A stretch of DNA of 64,000 nucleotides from Escherichia coli (GTDB lineage: Bacteria; Pseudomonadota; Gammaproteobacteria; Enterobacterales; Enterobacteriaceae), in the NCBI RefSeq assembly GCF_030384885.1, contig NZ_CP128613.1; one strand, written 5' to 3'. The notes under the pieces were generated by a model. That model saw only the letters and a list, made by a program, of their open reading frames with translations, did not search any database and was not told the DNA's origin. Below are positions 7,185 through 62,116 of the stretch, piece by piece. Made by a program: the position numbers and the translations under genes. The stretch's first letter is position 1. Each line of letters opens with the position of its first letter.

Positions 7185-8102
7185 ATGCCACTCTCAAAGC
7201 TCTGGGCAGGTTCACTGGTTTTGTTGGCAGCCGTGAGCCTGCCGCTACAGGCGGCTTCTGCCGTTAAAGTCGGTTCAAAAATCGATACCGAAGGCGCGCT
7301 ACTCGGCAACATTATTTTGCAAGTGCTGGAAAGCCACGGCGTACCGACGGTGAATAAAGTCCAGTTGGGAACCACGCCGGTGGTGCGCGGCGCGATCACT
7401 TCTGGCGAGCTGGATATCTATCCGGAATATACCGGTAATGGCGCTTTCTTCTTTAAAGATGAAAATGATGCGGCGTGGAAAAATGCCGGACAAGGCTACG
7501 AGAAAGTCAAAAAGCTCGATGCAGAGCAAAACAAGTTAATCTGGCTAACGCCCGCGCCTGCAAATAACACCTGGACCATCGCCGTGCGTCAGGATGTGGC
7601 AGAGAAAAATAAACTCACTTCGCTTGCCGACCTGAGTCGTTATCTGAAAGAGGGTGGCACCTTCAAACTGGCAGCCTCGGCTGAGTTTATCGAACGCGCC
7701 GATGCCTTACCCGCTTTTGAAAAAGCCTACGACTTTAAACTCGGTCAGGATCAGTTGCTGTCACTGGCCGGTGGCGACACGGCGGTGACAATCAAAGCTG
7801 CTGCCCAGCAAACATCCGGCGTTAATGCGGCGATGGCTTACGGCACCGACGGCCCGGTCGCGGCGCTGGGGCTGCAAACCTTAAGCGATCCGCAAGGCGT
7901 GCAACCTATCTACGCGCCTGCACCAGTGGTGCGTGAATCGGTGTTGAAGGAGTATCCGCAAATGGCACAGTGGCTACAGCCAGTCTTCGCCAGCCTCGAT
8001 GCAAAAACATTGCAGCAACTGAATGCCAGCATTGCTGTGGAAGGACTGGATGCCAAAAAAGTGGCTGCCGACTACCTGAAACAAAAAGGGTGGACGAAGT
8101 AA
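7185..8102 (+). CDS. osmF: Osmoprotectant ABC transporter periplasmic binding protein
   Basis: 305 aa, signal peptide MPLSKLWAGSLVLLAAVSLPLQAASA; first gene of osmF-yehYXW. Confidence 0.9.
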   Translation: MPLSKLWAGSLVLLAAVSLPLQAASAVKVGSKIDTEGALLGNIILQVLESHGVPTVNKVQLGTTPVVRGAITSGELDIYPEYTGNGAFFFKDENDAAWKNAGQGYEKVKKLDAEQNKLIWLTPAPANNTWTIAVRQDVAEKNKLTSLADLSRYLKEGGTFKLAASAEFIERADALPAFEKAYDFKLGQDQLLSLAGGDTAVTIKAAAQQTSGVNAAMAYGTDGPVAALGLQTLSDPQGVQPIYAPAPVVRESVLKEYPQMAQWLQPVFASLDAKTLQQLNASIAVEGLDAKKVAADYLKQKGWTK

Positions 8103-8108
8103 TTTCCC

Positions 8109-9266
8109 GTGACTTATTTCCGTATTAATCCTGTTCTGGCGCTGCTGCTGTTGCTGACGGCAATCGCAGCGGCGCTGCCGTTTATCAGTTACGCGCCTAA
8201 TCGTTTAGTCTCGGGTGAGGGGCGTCATCTCTGGCAGCTGTGGCCGCAAACGATCTGGATGCTGGTGGGCGTTGGTTGCGCCTGGCTGACCGCCTGTTTT
8301 ATTCCCGGTAAAAAAGGCAGCATTTTTGCACTCATTCTGGCGCAATTCGTCTTCATATTGCTGGTGTGGGGCGCGGGAAAGGCGGCGACACAACTGGCGC
8401 AAAATGGCAGTGCGCTGGCGCGTACCAGCCTCGGCAGTGGTTTCTGGCTGGCTGCGGCGCTGGCACTGCTGGCCTGTAGCGATGCCATCCGCCGAATCTC
8501 CACGCATCCGCTGTGGCGCTGGTTGTTGCATATGCAGATTGCCATTATTCCGCTGTGGTTGCTGTATTCCGGCGCGCTTAACGATCTCTCGCTAATGAAA
8601 GAATACGCCAACCGTCAGGATGTGTTTAATGACGCGCTGGCGCAACATCTGACGTTGCTGTTTGGTGCGGTGCTGCCTGCGTTAGTGATTGGTGTGCCGC
8701 TGGGCGTCTGGTGCTACTTTTCCACTGCGCGGCAGGGGGCGATTTTTTCTCTGCTGAATGTCATTCAGACCGTGCCTTCGGTGGCGCTCTTTGGCCTGTT
8801 GATTGCGCCGCTTGCCGCGCTGGTTACGGCCTTTCCGTGGCTGGGAACGCTCGGCGTAGCAGGAACCGGAATGACACCCGCACTGATTGCCCTGGTGCTC
8901 TATGCCTTGCTGCCGCTGGTGCGCGGTGTGGTAGTCGGCTTGAACCAGATCCCGCGCGATGTGCTGGAGAGCGCCAGAGCGATGGGCATGAGCGGGGCGC
9001 AGCGATTCCTGCATGTTCAGTTACCGCTGGCGTTACCGGTATTTCTGCGCAGCCTGCGGGTGGTGATGGTGCAAACCGTCGGCATGGCGGTGATTGCGGC
9101 GTTAATCGGCGCAGGTGGTTTTGGTGCGCTGGTTTTCCAGGGGCTGCTAAGCAGTGCCATTGATTTAGTGTTGCTGGGGGTGATCCCGGTAATCGTACTG
9201 GCGGTGCTGATCGACGCACTGTTCGATCTGGTTATCGCACTGCTGAAGGTGAAAAGTAATGATTGA
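8109..9266 (+). CDS. yehY: Osmoprotectant ABC transporter permease
   Basis: 385 aa, GTG start, multi-TM; overlaps yehX start (9259). Confidence 0.9.
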
Positions 9267-22182: not shown

Positions 22183-22265
22183 AAAAAAACCTGCTGGTGA
22201 GGCAGGTTCTTTTATTTACTACTTTCAGGCCTAACACCACGGCCTGTGCAACATCGTGTTCCAAC
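22183..22265 (-). ncRNA. orzO: OrzO-like type I antitoxin sRNA (boundaries estimated)
   Basis: Minus-strand -35 TTGCAA (22295-22300), 17-nt spacer, -10 TATAAT (rc of 22272-22277); intrinsic terminator at 22182-22214; 5' ~20 nt (rc of 22246-22265) complementary to toxin 5'UTR 22412-22431 with one mismatch. Confidence 0.6.
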
Positions 22266-22759: not shown

Positions 22760-22972
22760 GCGAAAAATATCTGGAAACCAGATCGCGGAAAATAAAAAAA
22801 CCTGCTGGTGAGGCAGGTTCTTTTATTTACTACTTTGACGATAACTTGCTGATTGTGCAACATTTCGTACCAACGAGTAAATTATAACCATATCCACACT
22901 CCATTGCAATTCAGTGAGTGAGATTTATAATCCTGCCCCTTGGGAGGTTGTGCCGGATCGGACCAATTTGAA
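22760..22972. repeat. Copy 2 of the repeat; truncated toxin-antitoxin unit with no toxin ORF
   Basis: Homology to copy 1 ends about 15 nt before the yehK stop codon; terminator and both promoters conserved. Confidence 0.85.
22793..22876 (-). ncRNA. Second Orz-like sRNA gene (OrzP-like), apparently orphan
   Basis: Minus-strand -10 (rc of attata 22882-22887) and -35 ttgcaa 22904-22909; terminator at 22793-22825; 5' pairing region diverged (gtgcaacatttcgtaccaac). Confidence 0.5.
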
Positions 22973-45574: not shown

Positions 45575-45667
45575 TTTCACAACGTTATTGTAATCCCGCC
45601 GTTTTTCCTCGTTTACAACGTGTGCGCGGGACATTACCATCCATCTCTGCGATTCATCATCGCAACC

Positions 45668-45790
45668 AAACGACTCGGGGTGCCCTTCTGCGTGAAGGCT
45701 GAGAAATACCCGTATCACCTGATCTGGATAATGCCAGCGTAGGGAAGTCACAGACCACCAGGTCATTGCTTCTTCACGTTATGGCAGGAG
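45668..45790 (+). ncRNA. TPP (thi-box) riboswitch in the thiM leader
   Basis: cgactcggggtgcccttctgcgtgaaggctgagaaatacccgtatcacctgatctggataatgccagcgtagggaagtc matches the thiM TPP aptamer; expression platform runs to the SD of thiM. Confidence 0.9.
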
Positions 45791-46585: not shown

Positions 46586-47382
46586 AACGAATTAACGCTC
46601 TGACGATTGCCGGTACTGATCCGAGCGGTGGCGCAGGGATTCAGGCCGATCTTAAAACCTTCTCGGCACTTGGCGCTTATGGTTGCTCAGTTATTACTGC
46701 ACTGGTGGCGCAAAATACCCGTGGCGTACAGTCGGTGTATCGCATTGAGCCTGATTTTGTCGCCGCCCAGCTCGATTCGGTGTTCACTGATGTGCGAATC
46801 GACACCACTAAAATCGGTATGTTGGCGGAAACCGATATTGTTGAAGCGGTGGCAGAACGGTTGCAACGTTATCAGATCCAAAACGTGGTACTCGACACCG
46901 TTATGCTGGCAAAAAGCGGCGACCCTCTGCTTTCACCTTCGGCGGTTGCCACGCTGCGCAGTCGATTATTGCCACAGGTTTCATTAATAACGCCAAACTT
47001 GCCCGAAGCTGCCGCCTTGCTCGACGCGCCACACGCGCGCAACGAACAGGAAATGCTGGAACAAGGGCGATCGCTGTTGGCGATGGGTTGTGGCGCAGTG
47101 CTAATGAAAGGTGGTCATCTGGATGATGAGCAAAGCCCGGACTGGCTGTTTACCCGAGAGGGGGAACAACGGTTTACTGCACCGCGCATTATGACCAAAA
47201 ACACCCACGGCACTGGTTGTACGCTCTCTGCGGCGTTGGCTGCACTACGCCCGCGCCATACAAACTGGGCTGACACCGTACAGGAGGCAAAAAGCTGGCT
47301 TTCATCGGCGTTAGCCCAGGCCGACACGCTGGAAGTTGGCGACGGTATTGGTCCGGTTCACCACTTCCACGCCTGGTGGTGA
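46582..47382 (+). CDS. thiD: Hydroxymethylpyrimidine/phosphomethylpyrimidine kinase
   Basis: 266 aa; start overlaps thiM stop; [27 protein letters not shown]. Confidence 0.93.
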
Positions 47383-47437
47383 GCACCGTACTATAGCTGC
47401 TTTGGTTATTGTCAGTCTTTGGCGCTGACATTCAGGG

Positions 47438-48265
47438 ATGAAACCAATGCAACTGAGAATCACCAGTCGAAAAAAATTCACCGCTTTATTATGCGCTCTG
47501 GGGCTCATTTCTATCGTTGCGATTTATCCGCGTCAGACGGTGAATTTTTTCTATTCGACAGCAATTCAGATTAAAGACTACATCCACTTCTACGGTTATC
47601 GCCCGGTCAAATCTTTTTCTATTCGCATTCCTGCCGCTTATACCATTCACGGAATAGATGTTTCGCGCTGGCAGGAGCGGATCGACTGGCAGCGGGTGGC
47701 TAAAATGCGCGATAACGGTATTCGCTTGCAATTTGCCTTTATCAAGGCGACGGAAGGCGAAAAGCTGGTGGATCCGTATTTTTCGCGTAACTGGCAACTA
47801 AGCCGCGAAAATGGCTTGCTGCGCGGGGCGTATCATTATTTCTCCCCGTCGGTATCCGCTTCAGTTCAGGCGCGATTATTTCTGCAAACGGTGGATTTCT
47901 CACAAGGCGATCTCCCTGCCGTGCTGGACGTAGAAGAACGGGGAAAATTATCGGCAAAAGAATTACGCAAGCGGGTAAGTCAGTGGCTAAAAATGGTCGA
48001 AAAACGCACGGGAAAAAAGCCGATTATTTACTCAGGAGCCGTTTTTTATCACACCAATCTGGCGGGCTATTTCAATGAATATCCGTGGTGGGTGGCTCAC
48101 TATTATCAACGTCGTCCGGACAATGACGGCATGGCCTGGCGCTTCTGGCAGCATTCCGACCGTGGACAGGTAGATGGCATTAATGGTCCGGTGGATTTTA
48201 ATGTGTTTAATGGCACGGTGGAGGAGTTGCAGGCATTCGTTGATGGGATTAAAGAAACGCCTTAA
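47438..48265 (+). CDS. yegX: Glycoside hydrolase family 25 (lysozyme-like) protein YegX
   Basis: 275-aa ORF (start could be 47447); GH25-like sequence with N-terminal membrane anchor. Confidence 0.8.
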   Translation: MKPMQLRITSRKKFTALLCALGLISIVAIYPRQTVNFFYSTAIQIKDYIHFYGYRPVKSFSIRIPAAYTIHGIDVSRWQERIDWQRVAKMRDNGIRLQFAFIKATEGEKLVDPYFSRNWQLSRENGLLRGAYHYFSPSVSASVQARLFLQTVDFSQGDLPAVLDVEERGKLSAKELRKRVSQWLKMVEKRTGKKPIIYSGAVFYHTNLAGYFNEYPWWVAHYYQRRPDNDGMAWRFWQHSDRGQVDGINGPVDFNVFNGTVEELQAFVDGIKETP

Positions 48266-48316
48266 ATAAGAAGCAGTGATATACTCCCACCAGACTCCCT
48301 GGCAGGAAAAAGACAA

Positions 48317-49063
48317 ATGGAACAAGCGCATACCCAGCTGATTGCCCAACTGAACGAACGTATTTTAGCGGCGGATAACACGCCGCTTTATATTAAGTTT
48401 GCCGAAACGGTGAAAAATGCCGTGCGCAGCGGGGTGCTGGAACATGGCAATATTTTACCCGGCGAGCGCGATTTAAGTCAGTTAACTGGCGTTTCGCGCA
48501 TTACGGTGCGCAAGGCGATGCAGGCGCTGGAAGAAGAGGGGGTGGTGACGCGTTCGCGCGGTTATGGCACGCAGATCAACAACATCTTCGAATACTCGTT
48601 GAAAGAAGCGCGAGGTTTTTCTCAGCAGGTGGTATTGCGCGGGAAAAAGCCCGATACGCTATGGGTTAACAAGCGTGTCGTGAAATGTCCCGAAGAAGTC
48701 GCGCAGCAGCTGGCGGTCGAAGCGGGAAGTGATGTCTTTTTGCTTAAGCGTATTCGCTATGTCGATGAAGAAGCGGTATCGATTGAGGAATCGTGGGTTC
48801 CGGCGCATTTAATTCATGATGTTGATGCCATCGGAATTTCTCTTTATGACTACTTCCGCAGCCAGCACATTTACCCACAACGTACCCGTTCCCGCGTTAG
48901 CGCCCGGATGCCGGATGCCGAGTTTCAGTCACATATTCAATTAGATAGTAAAATACCGGTGCTGGTGATCAAGCAAGTGGCGCTTGACCAACAGCAACGG
49001 CCTATTGAGTACAGCATCAGCCACTGTCGCAGTGATCTATACGTTTTTGTGTGCGAGGAGTAG
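48317..49063 (+). CDS. yegW: GntR-family transcriptional regulator YegW
   Basis: 248 aa; N-terminal GntR HTH and UTRA-like C-terminus. Confidence 0.85.
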   Translation: MEQAHTQLIAQLNERILAADNTPLYIKFAETVKNAVRSGVLEHGNILPGERDLSQLTGVSRITVRKAMQALEEEGVVTRSRGYGTQINNIFEYSLKEARGFSQQVVLRGKKPDTLWVNKRVVKCPEEVAQQLAVEAGSDVFLLKRIRYVDEEAVSIEESWVPAHLIHDVDAIGISLYDYFRSQHIYPQRTRSRVSARMPDAEFQSHIQLDSKIPVLVIKQVALDQQQRPIEYSISHCRSDLYVFVCEE

Positions 49064-50002
49064 TTCCTCGCGGGTTGGCGCGCAATCACCGCCGCGATGC
49101 CCGACAACCCACGACGCCACTGCATTGCCCAGCAATACGGCATCCGGCAGTGGCAGACCAGAGGCCAGCCCGGCAAGTACGCCACCGGCATGACTGTCGC
49201 CCGCCCCAATGGTGTCTACAACTTGCGTTGGAAATGCCGGAATGCAGCCAGAAGCGTCGTTGCTGAAATACCATGCGCCTTCTTTATCGAGACGAACGAT
49301 CAACGGCGCGGCAAATTTCTCCTGCCATTGCTTGCCAAGTGTTGTTATCTCTGCGGATAAAGCAAAACGTTCGGCGGCAATCTCAGCCTCCTGACGATTG
49401 AGTGACACTAAAGGTCGACAGGCCATGATCCGCGCCAGTAATGCGTCCGGGATATCGCCAATACGTGGGCCAAAATCGATAAACGGCGTCACGTCTTGCA
49501 GCTTTTCCAGCCATTCCACTAACAATTCGCCGCAGGGCGAGGCCAGTTGATAACCGGAAAAATAGAGCAGGCTGCCAGGCGCAACGGTTAATCGCGCCAA
49601 CCATTGGCGATTCCACTGATTTTCCACACCGCTGAATGACATAAAAGTGCGTTCGCCATCCGGCTCAACCAGCGCCAGACACCAGCCGTTATCACCTTCG
49701 GCGTTATCGATCTGGCTGATTAAGCCCTCTTTTGCCATCCGGTTGCGAATAATCTCCGCCCAAACCCCCTGACCGAGCGGCAAGGCATTACCCGCTTCGA
49801 TGCCGAGGCGCTTTAACGCCACGGCAATATTCAGTGCGCAGCCGCCAACGTTAACGCTCTGCTGTTTCAGTTCGATATCGCACCCACGCCAGGGGAGGGC
49901 ATAAGCGTCGGCGATCACGTCAATGACCGCCGCGCCGACGACCATCACCGGCTGACGCGTGGTTAATTCAGGCAGCAGCGTGTGTAATCGAGCGCCGCTC
50001 AT
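49037..50002 (-). CDS. yegV: PfkB-family sugar/nucleoside kinase YegV
   Basis: 321 aa; ribokinase-like GAGD motif (DTIGAGDSHAGG); 3' end overlaps yegW 3' end by 27 nt. Confidence 0.85.
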   Translation of the reverse strand: MSGARLHTLLPELTTRQPVMVVGAAVIDVIADAYALPWRGCDIELKQQSVNVGGCALNIAVALKRLGIEAGNALPLGQGVWAEIIRNRMAKEGLISQIDNAEGDNGWCLALVEPDGERTFMSFSGVENQWNRQWLARLTVAPGSLLYFSGYQLASPCGELLVEWLEKLQDVTPFIDFGPRIGDIPDALLARIMACRPLVSLNRQEAEIAAERFALSAEITTLGKQWQEKFAAPLIVRLDKEGAWYFSNDASGCIPAFPTQVVDTIGAGDSHAGGVLAGLASGLPLPDAVLLGNAVASWVVGHRGGDCAPTREELLLAHKNV

Positions 50003-51003
50003 ACCGCCTCCCGTTGTTGACGATACTTCGCCAGCGCTGTGGCATAGCGGTTGAAATCAAGCTGATTTACCGCATCCAGTTCCGCCTTTAACGCAGGATC
50101 GATAGCGTTAACGCCATGCAACGCGCCGCAAATTGCCGTCGCCATAGCACCGATGGTGTCTGTGTCGCCGCCAAGGTTAGCGCACAGGACGGCGCAACGG
50201 TTCGGGTCGGTTTGTGCCAGTTCAACCAGCGCAATGGCGCACGGAACGGACTCAATAGTGCTGGTACCTGCGCCAATGACCTGGTAAAGCTGTTCGCTGG
50301 CGGATTCGGTGCCGTCGGCATTGCGCACAATTTTCAGCGCAATCTCCAGGCGTGCCGCCAGTGAGGCGCTGAAGGTGGTGATGCGTTTTTGCTGTGCATG
50401 TCGCGCAATCGAGGGTAGAGAATCAACAATCGCTGACCAGCTTTCTCCGTCAATGGCACGGGAAATCGCCCATGCGATGACTACCGCACCTGCAACCGCC
50501 AGATCGGATTTATGGGTCGGGCTGGACGCCAGCGCCACATCATCAATAAAGGAATCAACATCGCGCGCCGGAAGCAAACAACCTAATGGCGAGACGCGCA
50601 TCGCTGCGCCGTTGGTCACGCCATTGTTTTCCAGTTCAGCAACGGGTTTACCGTCGCGAATGGCGTTGAGAGCAATCTTCGAGGTCGGACCTAGTACGTT
50701 TTTGTTAAAGGCGTCGAAACGCAGCGCCCAGTCGAGAATATTACGCCCAATCAGATCCGGATCGATCTCGCCTTCACGTTCCAGTAACGCATCCGCCAGA
50801 CACAGCGCCATTGAGGTATCGTCGGTGAATTCGGCGCGGTTAAAATAACAGGCCGCGTTATTCTCCTTTGGGCCAGGCAAAAAACGGTCAATCCAGCCAA
50901 AGTGTGCTTTAACGCGGCTGCGTGGCCAAAGCTCGGACGGCATCCCCATCGCATCCCCTAACGCCTGCCCGTAAAGAGCACCGAGAATACGTTCTGTTTT
51001 CAT
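49999..51003 (-). CDS. yegU: ADP-ribosylglycohydrolase-family protein YegU
   Basis: 334 aa; 4-nt overlaps with yegT and yegV. Confidence 0.85.
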   Translation of the reverse strand: MKTERILGALYGQALGDAMGMPSELWPRSRVKAHFGWIDRFLPGPKENNAACYFNRAEFTDDTSMALCLADALLEREGEIDPDLIGRNILDWALRFDAFNKNVLGPTSKIALNAIRDGKPVAELENNGVTNGAAMRVSPLGCLLPARDVDSFIDDVALASSPTHKSDLAVAGAVVIAWAISRAIDGESWSAIVDSLPSIARHAQQKRITTFSASLAARLEIALKIVRNADGTESASEQLYQVIGAGTSTIESVPCAIALVELAQTDPNRCAVLCANLGGDTDTIGAMATAICGALHGVNAIDPALKAELDAVNQLDFNRYATALAKYRQQREAV

Positions 51004-52277
51004 TTAACTTCCCCTTGTGTCAACGCAATATCGCGATCATCGACCTTGATAGCCGTAATTTCGTTGTCGGATTCGCGGAAAAAAATCATGAACAGCACGG
51101 CGATAATGGCAATCATCACCGCGCCGAAAGTCCACATCCCGGACCAGTTGAAAGTCAGTCCGTTTACCGGTTCCGGATAAGCGAACATCTTTTCCATCAT
51201 CACACCGCCAAGACGATAGCCGAGCAAACTGCCGAATCCCTGGCAGCAGAGCGTGATCAGCCCCTGCGCAGCGGTACGCATATGCACGGGGGCTTTTTTA
51301 TCGACATAGATGTAAGCGGTAACGTAGTAAAAATCGTAACTTACTCCATGCAGCAAAATGCCGAGGAACAGTAACGCGTAGGTGAAATATTCATCCGCAC
51401 TACCGTAAATAAAGAAGCCATAGCGGATCGCAGCGGTGACCAGACCAAGTAATAATACCTTTTTGATACCAAAGCGTTTGGTAAAAAACGGCAATGCCAG
51501 CATAAAGAAGATTTCAGAGAACTGGCCGAGCGTCATCCAGCCGGTGGCATTTTTCATGCCGACTTCGGTCAGATAACCGTTGGCAAAGATGTAATAGAAC
51601 GCCAACGGCATCGCAAACAGGAATGAACAGAAGAAAAAGACGAGGAAGTTTTTATCGCGCAGCAGGATCAGCGCATCCAGTCCGAGCATGACTTTAATGT
51701 CCATTTTGCCGGTGCTTTTTGGCGGCGTGTCAGGCAGGAAAAACGCAAACACACCGAGCAGAGCAGAACTTCCGGCGGTAATCAGCAGCGGGATGTTAGT
51801 CGGAGAGATATCGGCATAACCCAGCATTTGCGGCAAGAATCCACATGCCAGACCGGAGGCAATCCAGCCGATAGTGCCCATCACACGAATGCGTGGGAAA
51901 TCACGCTCCACATCCGGCACGTTGGCAAAAGCGATACTGTTAGTCAGCGCAATGGTCGGCATATAGGTTAGCGAGTAGGCCAGCAGTAACGGGAAGAAGC
52001 CGGCAAAAGTGGTCTGTTGCGCAGCGAAATACATCAGCGCCGCACCAGCGAACATCAATACCGCCAGCACTTTCTGCGCCGAGAAAAAGCGGTCAGTGAT
52101 GGAGCCAACCAGAATTGGCGACAGGATCGCTGCAATGGCGGTACAGGCATACGACCAACCAATTTCTCCGGCACTAAAACCGCTTTTACTTAACCACAAC
52201 CACAATGGCACAAACCACGCGCCCCAGATAAACCATTCAACAAACATCATGAACGACAGCTTTGCTGTTGTTTTCAT
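51000..52277 (-). CDS. yegT: Nucleoside:H+ symporter-family transporter YegT
   Basis: 425 aa, 12-TM MFS-like. Confidence 0.85.
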   Translation of the reverse strand: MKTTAKLSFMMFVEWFIWGAWFVPLWLWLSKSGFSAGEIGWSYACTAIAAILSPILVGSITDRFFSAQKVLAVLMFAGAALMYFAAQQTTFAGFFPLLLAYSLTYMPTIALTNSIAFANVPDVERDFPRIRVMGTIGWIASGLACGFLPQMLGYADISPTNIPLLITAGSSALLGVFAFFLPDTPPKSTGKMDIKVMLGLDALILLRDKNFLVFFFCSFLFAMPLAFYYIFANGYLTEVGMKNATGWMTLGQFSEIFFMLALPFFTKRFGIKKVLLLGLVTAAIRYGFFIYGSADEYFTYALLFLGILLHGVSYDFYYVTAYIYVDKKAPVHMRTAAQGLITLCCQGFGSLLGYRLGGVMMEKMFAYPEPVNGLTFNWSGMWTFGAVMIAIIAVLFMIFFRESDNEITAIKVDDRDIALTQGEVK

Positions 52278-52533
52278 CTTTTAATTCCTTCATGACAGGT
52301 AATGTAAGGTACGCGATGACAATACCATTTAATAATACCTTTTAAATACCTTTGTGGTGAAAAATTGACCGCGGTAACATTTTTTCTGATGAATCGAGCC
52401 AACAGAAAACGCTGAAAAAACATCCAAAAGATGGAAAAACTCGCCTGTAACGACCAGGATTATGATTGCCCGCAAAAGGCGGGCCAGGACAATCCATAGC
52501 CGATATCCAATCGGAATTTACGGGAGCATAGTA

Positions 52534-53586
52534 ATGACAGATATTGCGCAGTTGCTTGGCAAAGACGCCGACAACCTTTTACAGCACCGTTGTATGACTA
52601 TTCCTTCTGACCAGCTTTATCTCCCCGGACATGACTACGTAGACCGCGTGATGATTGACAATAATCGCCCGCCAGCGGTGTTACGTAATATGCAGACGTT
52701 GTACAACACTGGGCGTCTGGCTGGCACAGGATATCTTTCTATTCTGCCGGTTGACCAGGGCGTTGAGCACTCTGCCGGAGCTTCATTTGCCGCTAACCCG
52801 CTCTACTTTGACCCGAAAAACATTGTTGAACTGGCGATCGAAGCGGGCTGTAACTGTGTGGCGTCAACCTACGGCGTGCTGGCATCGGTATCGCGGCGTT
52901 ACGCGCATCGCATTCCATTCCTCGTCAAACTTAATCACAACGAGACGCTAAGTTACCCGAATACCTACGATCAAACGCTGTATGCCAGCGTGGAGCAGGC
53001 GTTCAACATGGGCGCGGTGGCGGTTGGGGCGACTATCTATTTTGGCTCGGAAGAGTCACGTCGCCAGATTGAAGAAATTTCTGCGGCCTTTGAACGCGCG
53101 CATGAGCTGGGCATGGTGACCGTGCTGTGGGCCTATTTGCGTAACTCCGCCTTTAAGAAAGATGGCGTTGATTACCATGTTTCCGCCGACCTGACAGGTC
53201 AGGCGAACCATCTGGCGGCAACCATAGGTGCAGATATCGTCAAACAAAAAATGGCGGAAAATAACGGCGGTTATAAAGCGATTAATTACGGTTATACCGA
53301 CGATCGCGTGTACAGCAAGTTGACCAGCGAAAACCCGATTGATCTGGTGCGTTATCAGTTAGCTAACTGCTATATGGGCCGGGCAGGGTTGATAAACTCC
53401 GGCGGTGCTGCAGGCGGTGAAACTGACCTCAGCGATGCAGTGCGTACTGCGGTCATCAACAAACGCGCTGGCGGAATGGGGCTGATTCTTGGACGTAAGG
53501 CGTTCAAGAAATCGATGGCTGACGGCGTGAAACTGATTAACGCCGTGCAGGACGTTTATCTCGATAGCAAAATTACTATCGCCTGA
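52534..53586 (+). CDS. fbaB: Class I fructose-bisphosphate aldolase
   Basis: ORF 52462-53586; ATG at 52534 gives 350 aa beginning [32 protein letters not shown]. Confidence 0.93.
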
Positions 53587-61945: not shown

Positions 61946-62032
61946 AAAAAATAAGCCCGTGTAAGGGAGATTACACAGGCTAAGGAGGTGGTTCCTGGTA
62001 CAGCTAGCATTTTATGGGTTATGTTTTTCAGC
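61946..62032 (-). ncRNA. cyaR: CyaR (RyeE) Hfq-dependent sRNA
   Basis: Minus strand reads GCTGAAAAACATAACCCATAAAATGCTAGCTGTACCAGGAACCACCTCCTTAGCCTGTGTAATCTCCCTTACACGGGCTTATTTTTT, matching CyaR including its terminator, as recalled. Confidence 0.9.
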
Positions 62033-62116
62033 GAAACGGATGATAACCTTAATAAATGCAGCTGTATGTGATCGGTTTCTAAGAATTTTCCATCCGGGAA
62101 AAATAATCGAAATTAA

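Follow-up and report, generated by a model that had tools for sequence, protein, structure and literature searches.

The pseudouridine genes psuK/psuG/psuT of Escherichia coli correspond to yeiC-yeiN-yeiM, and PsuG has the fold of the PsuG/IndA family. In Salmonella, STM4066 is an aminoimidazole riboside kinase; Dougherty and Downs are said to have described, in 2003, STM4065 as a permease and a GntR-type gene, STM4068, as adjoining the operon. Both systems resemble the yegTUV operon of E. coli and its regulator gene yegW, which were analysed here in a 64-kb stretch of the genome (contig NZ_CP128613.1 of RefSeq assembly GCF_030384885.1; hereafter, the window). In pseudouridine catabolism (psuK/psuG/psuT and the plant genes PUKI/PUMY), a nucleoside transporter is combined with a PfkB kinase acting on the intact nucleoside and a glycosidase that yields ribose-5-phosphate and the base (PMC9061257). 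The STM4065-STM4066-STM4067 operon contains the PfkB kinase STM4066 (PDB 1TYY) and STM4067, a member of the ADP-ribosylglycohydrolase (ARH) family, and a mutant of the latter (a putative ADP-ribosylglycohydrolase) was attenuated in the pig intestine (PMC3161100). The ribose-utilisation (rus) loci of Bacteroidetes likewise encode a regulator, one or more ribokinases, a transporter and variable ribose-releasing enzymes, in some cases including ADP-ribosylglycohydrolases (bioRxiv 10.1101/574913). The yegTUV locus differs from each of these. The pseudouridine system has a known substrate and a glycosidase of a fold other than that of the ARH-fold YegU, whereas the position of YegV in the order of steps has to be deduced. 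STM4066 belongs to another PfkB subfamily, to which YegV is only weakly related (E value of 8e-5 to 1TYY), and STM4065-4067 is an accessory locus of Salmonella, in contrast to the core status of yegTUV in E. coli. The rus loci have the architecture of polysaccharide-utilisation loci, with SusC/D-type outer-membrane uptake, induction by ribose and bona fide ribokinases. Our literature search retrieved nothing relevant on the combination of an ADP-ribosylglycohydrolase, a riboside kinase and a transporter beyond STM4067, and no paper at all that links such a hydrolase with PfkB and nucleosides; a 2026 paper on the ribose kinase STM3547 does not mention yegV, ribazole or glycohydrolases.

The evidence described below favours, with a probability of about 0.55, the view that yegTUV and yegW together make up a self-contained module for the catabolism or salvage of a non-canonical riboside, in which import would be followed by phosphorylation by YegV and then by hydrolysis by YegU, with the phosphorylated intermediate acting as the inducer. 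All five genes of the region, the 4-nt overlaps at both operon junctions and the 27-nt overlap of yegV and yegW were found in the list of open reading frames (ORFs) where the initial annotation had placed them (Table 1). Its family assignments also held, the corresponding Pfam models being Nuc_H_symport, ADP_ribosyl_GH and PfkB for yegT, yegU and yegV, GntR plus UTRA for yegW and Glyco_hydro_25 for yegX. Its description of the operon as poorly characterised still applies to the chemistry and substrate of YegU and YegV; it no longer fits YegW, which was named GgaR in 2024, YegT, for which a structure (8ZOJ) exists, or the yegV-yegW pair, which has been listed as an excludon.

Table 1. Positions of the genes and other features of the yeg region in the window.
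Feature	Position	Strand	Description
yegX	47438/47447–48265	+	RefSeq start equivalent to 47447; GH25 muramidase-like
yegW (ggaR)	48317–49063	+	GntR/HutC-type repressor with UTRA effector domain; convergent with yegV
yegV/yegW 3' overlap	49037–49063		Convergent, 27 nt, tail-to-tail
yegV	49037–50002	−	PfkB-family kinase; predicted riboside kinase, not ribokinase
yegU	49999–51003	−	ARH-fold (ADP-ribosylglycohydrolase family) hydrolase; predicted glycosidic-bond hydrolase
yegT	51000–52277	−	Transporter of the nucleoside:H+ symporter (NHS/MFS) family; heads the operon
AAAGGTATT box within yegT	51454–51462	−	ORF nt 816–824; candidate second, weaker GgaR site
yegT promoter-like site	52321–52361	−	Promoter scan; −35 TTCACC (52361–52356), 18-nt spacer, −10 TATTAT (52337–52332)
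GGTAT boxes	52345–52353, 52334–52342, 52321–52329		Three direct boxes over the promoter-like site; candidate GgaR operator

The distribution of the module was examined in a genome survey limited to one genome per species, which yielded 80 loci, and in a metagenome scan seeded on distant homologues, which yielded 80 more. The arrangement yegT-yegU-yegV with a convergent yegW was found in Enterobacteriaceae, Pectobacterium, the Erwinia/Pantoea group, Budvicia, Providencia and Gilliamella. Vibrio and Photobacterium have a co-directional yegW, usually separated from yegV by an extra MFS gene, and in two Woeseiaceae genomes yegT-yegU-yegV is present with no yegW-like gene found nearby. A second architecture, in the order GntR, ARH, NCS1-family permease and PfkB, was found in Aeromonas, Serratia, Lonsdalea, Photobacterium, Chromobacterium, Endozoicomonas, Paenibacillus and Oceanobacillus, and a Clostridium locus has the order GntR, ARH, PfkB and PnuC-family carrier. 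On human-gut contigs, ARH-PfkB-PnuC-GntR loci are common beside those of the NCS1 and NHS types, and ECF and ABC transporters occur in further contexts. Adjacency, defined as a PfkB gene within 3.5 kb of the YegU-type hydrolase gene, was counted only for loci with at least 2.5 kb of flanking sequence on both sides, and was seen in 118 of 124 such loci (68/74 from genomes and 50/50 from metagenomes). The two enzymes are also fused in both orders, PfkB-ARH and ARH-PfkB, in different lineages including Actinobacteria. The constant unit is therefore the hydrolase and the kinase, usually with a GntR/UTRA regulator, whereas the carrier varies by lineage (NHS, NCS1, PnuC, ECF or ABC) and comes from families whose cargoes are nucleosides, nucleobases and vitamin-type ribosides.

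Clustering of the flanking genes of the 160 loci revealed no extra conserved pathway enzyme. The recurrent flanks represent lineage synteny (fbaB, thiMD, CstA, RNase R, transposase and SDR genes), and only hints were found among the others, namely PNP_UDP_1 (two loci), DeoB/DeoC (one locus) and an isochorismatase-family gene (one locus). The last of these, of the isochorismatase/nicotinamidase family, lies beside a fused ARH-PfkB gene. Because the other flanks are not conserved, the module looks self-contained. An Rfam scan of 10 distant loci detected no riboswitch upstream of the hydrolase-kinase genes, the thiamine pyrophosphate (TPP) and guanidine-I hits belonging to neighbouring units, and no RNA element was found by Rfam in the yeg region of the window. 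Some loci contain a second ARH-family gene after the transporter genes (e.g. 7511–8500 of locus L097), and a tandem ARH-ARH protein with two matched stretches (P0161, 692 aa) represents an abundant metagenomic cluster of 175 members.

YegV is a clear member of the PfkB family (Pfam PF00294, 8.3e-56); against the ribokinase model TIGR02152, it scores 81.8 bits, far short of the cut-off of 299.65. In the alignment with E. coli RbsK, D16, N46 and D255 (the catalytic base, in the GAGD motif) are retained as D28, N58 and D269, and G53-G54 and G266-A-G-D269 of YegV align with G41-G42 and D255 of RbsK, so that the GG motif and the anion hole are present. By contrast, N14, K43 and E143 of RbsK are replaced by V26, C55 and A154. 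Among 18 YegV-like kinases ranging from E. coli to Firmicutes, C55 is invariant and position 26 is always hydrophobic. K54 and E154 of human ribokinase, the equivalents of K43 and E143, are essential for activity (PMC12621476). Since N14, K43 and E143 are replaced and the pattern is held in the 18 homologues, YegV looks like a kinase for a ribofuranosyl compound substituted at C1 rather than a ribokinase, and C55 appears to be a signature of the subfamily. The C55 codon lies at about 49838–49840 on the minus strand; its Cys takes the place of ribokinase Lys43 in the GG-x motif, and Ser is found there in some more distant homologues. Orthology of YegV with the Salmonella aminoimidazole riboside kinase was considered and rejected on the basis of the weak match to 1TYY noted above, and the NCS1-type kinase gave no match to it at 1e-8.

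YegU matches PF03747 over almost the entire profile (8.3e-67, positions 1–285 of 287), and its nearest solved structures are MJ1187 (1e-29) and ARH3 (2e-16). The catalytic and metal-binding positions of human ARH3, namely Glu41, Thr76-Asp77-Asp78 and Asp314-x-Asp316-Thr317 (PMC9738213, PMC7050489), align with E24, T60-D61-D62 and D280-x-D282-T283 of YegU, which are invariant or nearly so in 22 homologues. The NG-AMR loop of ARH3 and the equivalent of its His182 (H164, invariant among the homologues) are also retained. Phe143 and Tyr149, which stack on adenine in ARH3 (PMC7050489), align with Asn126 and Val129 in a gapped loop, so that this correspondence is moderately reliable, and no conserved aromatic residue was found in this gapped loop across the homologues aligned. 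YegU thus keeps the ARH catalytic site and, with moderate confidence, lacks the adenine clamp of ARH3. It resembles ARH3, ARH1 and DraG in fold, two-metal motifs and catalytic Glu, but shares about 20–25% identity with them at most, is cytoplasmic, is linked in an operon to a kinase and a transporter, and scores below the cut-offs of the equivalog models for DraG (79 bits; cut-off, 337) and Tri1 (68 bits; cut-off, 490). None of YegU, YegV and YegW reaches the cut-off of any function-level NCBIfam model (June 2026), and our literature search found no published biochemistry for YegU or YegV. The ARH enzymes characterised so far are specific for alpha-C1'' bonds; they cleave ribosyl linkages of this kind to O or N, among them the pyridinium linkage in alpha-NAD+ (PMC9738213). 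A reading of the locus as a defence system was rejected, since PADLOC gave no match for YegU, YegV, YegW or YegX.

YegT matches Pfam Nuc_H_symport (6e-183), passes the cut-off of NCBIfam TIGR00889 (651.8 bits; cut-off, 446.1) and is near-identical to PDB 8ZOJ ('Putative nucleoside transporter YegT'), the crystal structure of which was published in 2025 (PMC11979927). The GxxxD protonation motif of transmembrane helix 10 (PMC11979927) is present, G311-x-x-x-D315 of YegT corresponding to G319 and D323 of NupG in the alignment. By profile cut-off and this motif, YegT is a member of the NHS family. It shares family and fold with the nucleoside:H+ symporters NupG and XapB, with a root-mean-square deviation of 1.57 Å to NupG and a conserved GxxxD motif (PMC11979927), but differs from them in its 27% identity, in its altered base contacts and in having no detected binding of the four canonical nucleosides. 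Our alignment indicates that R136, T140, Q261, E264 and D323 of NupG are retained, whereas the base-contact residues are changed (F143W, Q225A, N228Y, Y318H and F322Y); the published comparison also states that the uridine-contacting residues of NupG are not conserved, and in isothermal titration calorimetry neither uridine, adenosine, cytidine nor guanosine bound significantly (PMC11979927). Because YegT binds none of these nucleosides and the base contacts of NupG differ, a non-canonical substrate is favoured.

YegW consists of an N-terminal winged helix (Pfam GntR, 3e-16) and a C-terminal UTRA domain (2e-36), and its closest solved homologue is NagR/YvoA (5.8e-22). NagR coordinates phosphate through Thr90, Arg133, Arg135, Ser165, Ile166 and Tyr167 (PMC4333415), and all six positions are conserved in the alignment with YegW (S102, R145, R147, S175, L176 and Y177) and also in 18 YegW-like regulators. 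YegW therefore shares both its architecture and its phosphate positions with NagR/YvoA and other HutC/UTRA repressors, which sense a phosphorylated intermediate (N-acetylglucosamine-6-phosphate), but differs from NagR in that ADP-glucose is the sole ligand reported for it. Under the name GgaR, the protein was studied by Saito et al. (2024, PMC10819704). In chromatin immunoprecipitation with microarrays (ChIP-chip), it had a single target, the fbaB/yegT spacer, plus a weaker site within yegT (PMC10819704). The yegTUV genes are transcribed as one 3.3-kb mRNA that is undetectable in the wild type and about 30-fold increased in a yegW deletion mutant, whereas fbaB is unaffected by the deletion (PMC10819704). 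The earlier view of yegW as the linked GntR regulator thus agrees with both the derepression and the single ChIP-chip target. The level of GgaR protein was constant under the published conditions (PMC10819704).

Although the 2024 paper defined no GgaR motif (PMC10819704), a candidate can be proposed from the three GGTAT boxes listed in Table 1. A nine-species alignment of the spacer, covering E. coli through Vibrio, has its main invariant blocks in GGTATT-N5-GGTATTAT, which overlaps the −10 hexamer; the third box follows this element and is inverted in Vibrio. The boxes fall in the 190 bp upstream of yegT that were bound by GgaR in gel shifts (PMC10819704). Exact matches to AAAGGTATT occur three times in the 64-kb window, twice in the yegT promoter and once within yegT, and the latter copy falls in published probe-5 (yegT nt 571–869), which was bound by GgaR at a higher protein concentration (PMC10819704). 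As a candidate operator, the GGTAT box would account for both published GgaR sites and would imply repression by promoter occlusion. TGGTCT is a half-site of the HutC family, and the GGTAT half-sites attributed to YegW resemble the TGGTAT/TGGTCT half-sites of that family; however, the putative yegT operator consists of direct repeats and one inverted element, not of a simple palindrome as in NagR/HutC. On the other side of the spacer, the longest ORF of fbaB starts at 52462 (52462–53586), whereas the RefSeq start is equivalent to 52534, so that the ORF start overstates the length of the gene and shrinks the apparent yegT-fbaB spacer.

Taken together, these features are consistent with the following scheme. 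YegT would import a non-canonical riboside with a proton, and YegV would add a phosphate to this riboside while it is still intact, the 5'-OH of the ribose being the likeliest site. YegU, as a two-metal ARH-fold hydrolase, would then cleave the glycosidic bond of the phosphorylated riboside to give ribose-5-phosphate and the free aglycone. YegW/GgaR, bound to the GGTAT boxes over the −10 hexamer, would keep the operon off until it binds a phosphorylated ligand specific to the pathway, for which the product of YegV is the most plausible candidate, and is thereby released. Of these elements, the structure of the operon, its repression by YegW, the family to which each protein belongs, the obligate hydrolase-kinase pairing and the absence of YegT binding to the four canonical nucleosides are established; we infer the order of the steps, the 5'-phosphorylation, ribose-5-phosphate as the product, the sequence of the operator and the kind of ligand that acts as inducer. 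Phosphorylation is placed first because of the residue pattern of YegV, in which D16/N46/D255 are kept and N14/K43/E143 are changed to V/C/A, and because of the phosphate pocket of YegW, given that ribose-5-phosphate is always present in cells and cannot signal for a silent operon. The same order is favoured because PnuC-type carriers are frequent among the loci and Pnu uptake relies on trapping, Pnu-type carriers acting by facilitated diffusion with trapping by phosphorylation (PMC5749112), and because of the precedent of pseudouridine catabolism (PMC9061257). The core of the initial annotation, which had proposed uptake, glycosidic cleavage and phosphorylation of a ribosylated compound by the products of one operon, is supported by the 3.3-kb mRNA and the comparative data. 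Its individual steps are retained here, whereas the order in which it listed them, cleavage and then phosphorylation, is less likely than the reverse, judging from the YegV residues and the YegW pocket.

If hydrolysis came first, YegU would cleave the imported riboside or ribosylated compound to an aglycone and free ribose or another sugar, and YegV would be a ribokinase-like sugar kinase. The gene order T-U-V is in line with this sequence of events, ribokinases are the best-scoring named relatives of YegV, the ribose-utilisation loci of Bacteroides pair ribokinases with ADP-ribosylglycohydrolases and nucleoside hydrolases (bioRxiv 10.1101/574913), and the PfkB/ARH fusions are compatible with either order. 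However, the shortfall of YegV against the ribokinase model, the absence of the N14, K43 and E143 equivalents together with the invariant Cys, and the presence of RbsK in E. coli all argue otherwise, and the YegW pocket would need to sense the ever-present ribose-5-phosphate even though the operon is silent in the wild type; we regard this order as rather unlikely. YegU could instead be a genuine (ADP-ribosyl)hydrolase whose task is to undo the ADP-ribosylation of some protein, nucleic acid or small molecule; the transporter and kinase would then serve unrelated roles. The clear membership of PF03747, the intact catalytic site and the weak similarity to the DraG and Tri1 models would fit such a role, but the scores against both models are far below their cut-offs, the ARH3 adenine-stacking residues are absent, PADLOC returned no match, and the loci that were annotated or mapped showed no ADP-ribosyltransferase partner. 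The near-obligate adjacency or fusion with a PfkB kinase, together with a small-molecule transporter, fits metabolism and not signalling, which makes this role very improbable.

The published model assigns the operon to ADP-glucose or its precursors, with GgaR sensing ADP-glucose and setting glycogen according to glucose supply. In gel shifts, GgaR was released by 10–100 μM ADP-glucose and not by ADP or glucose (PMC10819704). Deletion of ggaR gave 2- to 3-fold more glycogen, yegTUV mRNA was ~3-fold higher at 1% than at 0.25% glucose in a GgaR-dependent manner, and deletion of yegV reportedly lowers glycogen (PMC10819704). Against this model, these three compounds were the only effectors tried, ADP-glucose has no ribosyl bond of the type cleaved by ARH enzymes, and the same hydrolase-kinase-GntR core pairs with PnuC, NCS1 and ECF carriers of vitamins, nucleobases and nucleosides and not of nucleotide sugars (PMC5749112). 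The 3-fold induction by glucose falls far short of the 30-fold derepression, which suggests that the true inducer was probably missing, and the change in glycogen could be indirect, arising from overexpression of a promiscuous kinase and hydrolase. The model therefore seems improbable, and ADP-glucose may act as a partial mimic of the phosphorylated ligand.

Several observations weigh against the proposed riboside module with kinase-first order. We know of no ARH-fold enzyme that acts on a ribose-5-phosphate conjugate. The order of the YegU and YegV steps and their products rest on residue patterns and analogy. Three Firmicute-type kinases have Glu at the E143 position, and the mapping of Phe143/Tyr149 lies in a gapped loop of an alignment of the 16-bit-per-hundred-residue class and is moderately reliable. 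YegU-type genes without a nearby kinase or transporter occur in Edwardsiella, Serratia marcescens and Brenneria (~63–66% identity; loci L054, L061, L063, L081, L053 and L059), with an adjoining GntR gene in Edwardsiella and Serratia and without one in Brenneria; in some lineages, YegU may therefore work on its own. The known substrates of characterised ARH enzymes are alpha-linked ADP-ribose conjugates (PMC9738213, PMC7050489), the sole effector that released GgaR in vitro is ADP-glucose, which is not a compound of the proposed riboside kind, and the reported ggaR phenotypes concern glycogen (PMC10819704).

Candidate substrates of the proposed module include pyridinium ribosides (nicotinamide-riboside-like compounds, including alpha anomers), other alpha-ribosides and ribosyl-nucleosides. 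Pyridinium or alpha-ribosides are favoured because of the stereochemistry of ARH enzymes, the PnuC and NCS1 carriers, the single isochorismatase-family neighbour and the failure of YegT to bind canonical nucleosides; a ribosyl-nucleoside would likewise suit the PNP-family genes that flank two of the loci. A more specific idea, which we consider speculative and on balance quite unlikely, is that YegU-type proteins constitute a new class of ARH-fold phosphoribohydrolases that act on small phosphorylated ribosides instead of ADP-ribose conjugates and would serve in the salvage of nicotinamide or another aglycone and of ribose-5-phosphate from ribosides beyond the reach of standard enzymes. This idea draws on the replacement of YegT by PnuC or NCS1 carriers in many loci, on the ARH-PfkB gene beside an isochorismatase-family gene and on the non-binding by YegT. 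The most attractive candidates would then be NAD-derived pyridinium ribosides that are alpha-anomeric or in some other way non-canonical. In that case, yegU could encode the nicotinamide-mononucleotide glycohydrolase activity described in enteric bacteria, to which, to our knowledge, no gene has been assigned.

Both junctions of the operon (yegT/yegU and yegU/yegV) have the sequence ATGA, and each is preceded on its 5' side by a purine-rich, Shine-Dalgarno-like sequence (GGGAGGCGGTATGA at yegU/yegV and AAGGGGAAGTTAAATGA at yegT/yegU). In related loci of other species, the yegT stop codon lies within ATGA in 32 and the yegU stop codon in 34. At the other end of the operon, the 27-nt overlap between yegV and yegW is kept in 38 of the 51 loci with a convergent pair (Enterobacteriaceae and Pectobacterium), is 14 nt long in the Erwinia/Pantoea group and is absent from Budvicia, Brenneria, Hafnia, Rahnella, Providencia and Gilliamella. 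The yegTUV/yegW arrangement is thus conserved rather than accidental. The overlap itself is stable in Enterobacteriaceae but not required by the module, since yegW is co-directional in Vibrio and several Enterobacterales have a gap. Because the coding sequences overlap, the yegV and yegW transcripts must overlap as well, and the pair is listed among excludons defined by RNA-seq (PMC12288877). No intrinsic terminator was found between the two genes, where the hairpins lack a U-tract. A perfect 7-bp hairpin (49053–49071; GCGAGGA/TCCTCGC) carries the yegW stop codon in its loop and is present in the minimum-energy fold of the yegTUV 3' end (z = −2.6), with no U-tract on either strand. It is possible that the convergent overlap leads to transcriptional interference between yegV and yegW, although this would not be general to the module.

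YegX matches Glyco_hydro_25 (4e-55), has an N-terminal hydrophobic segment and is 35–41% identical to phage GH25 endolysins. The initial annotation had grouped yegX with the other genes, which was not borne out: within the 80-species set, yegX lies beside yegW solely in the two loci from E. coli. In Citrobacter, Salmonella, Enterobacter and others, yegW is followed directly by thiD with no yegX between them, and in E. albertii a different gene occupies the position. The gene is a lineage-specific neighbour outside the yegTUVW module and looks like a domesticated or stranded endolysin gene. The adjacency of thiMD and yegW is kept in most Enterobacteriaceae loci, and a TPP riboswitch (45666–45762) lies upstream of thiM-thiD, adjoining the yeg genes. 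Elsewhere in the window, the RNA scan identified two OrzO-P antitoxin small RNAs (22183–22258 and 22794–22867), CyaR (61949–62034), a Peptidase-S11 RNA motif (1618–1698) and naRNA4 (2641–2718).

Bases 47000–53000 of the window are 100% identical to E. coli 2013C-4282, in which the genes are annotated as yegX, yegW, yegV, yegU and yegT, and ~98% identical to most other complete genomes; a match is present in 5,424 of 5,426 complete E. coli genomes. The yegTUV-yegW locus is therefore a core locus of E. coli. Over the same bases, an identity of at least 99% was found in just 2 of the 5,425 matching E. coli records, the rest being 95–99% and typically 98% identical; the window (probably as a whole) therefore comes from a comparatively divergent E. 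coli lineage, represented by 2013C-4282.

The operon, its regulation by GgaR, the structure of YegT and the excludon listing were already known; the adjacency and fusions of hydrolase and kinase, the variation of the carrier, the restriction of yegX to Escherichia, the residue patterns and the operator box are new here. The yegTUV operon is among the E. coli core-genome operons still awaiting a function, and the module to which it belongs spreads from Enterobacterales and Vibrio to gut Firmicutes and Actinobacteria. Since the related Salmonella hydrolase STM4067 helps the bacterium to persist in the pig intestine, the riboside in question is probably a nutrient or related to a vitamin, and available in the gut. 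Its identification would give the ARH fold its first small-molecule metabolic role, would clarify the effects of GgaR loss on glycogen storage and stress tolerance, and would annotate thousands of orthologous operons.

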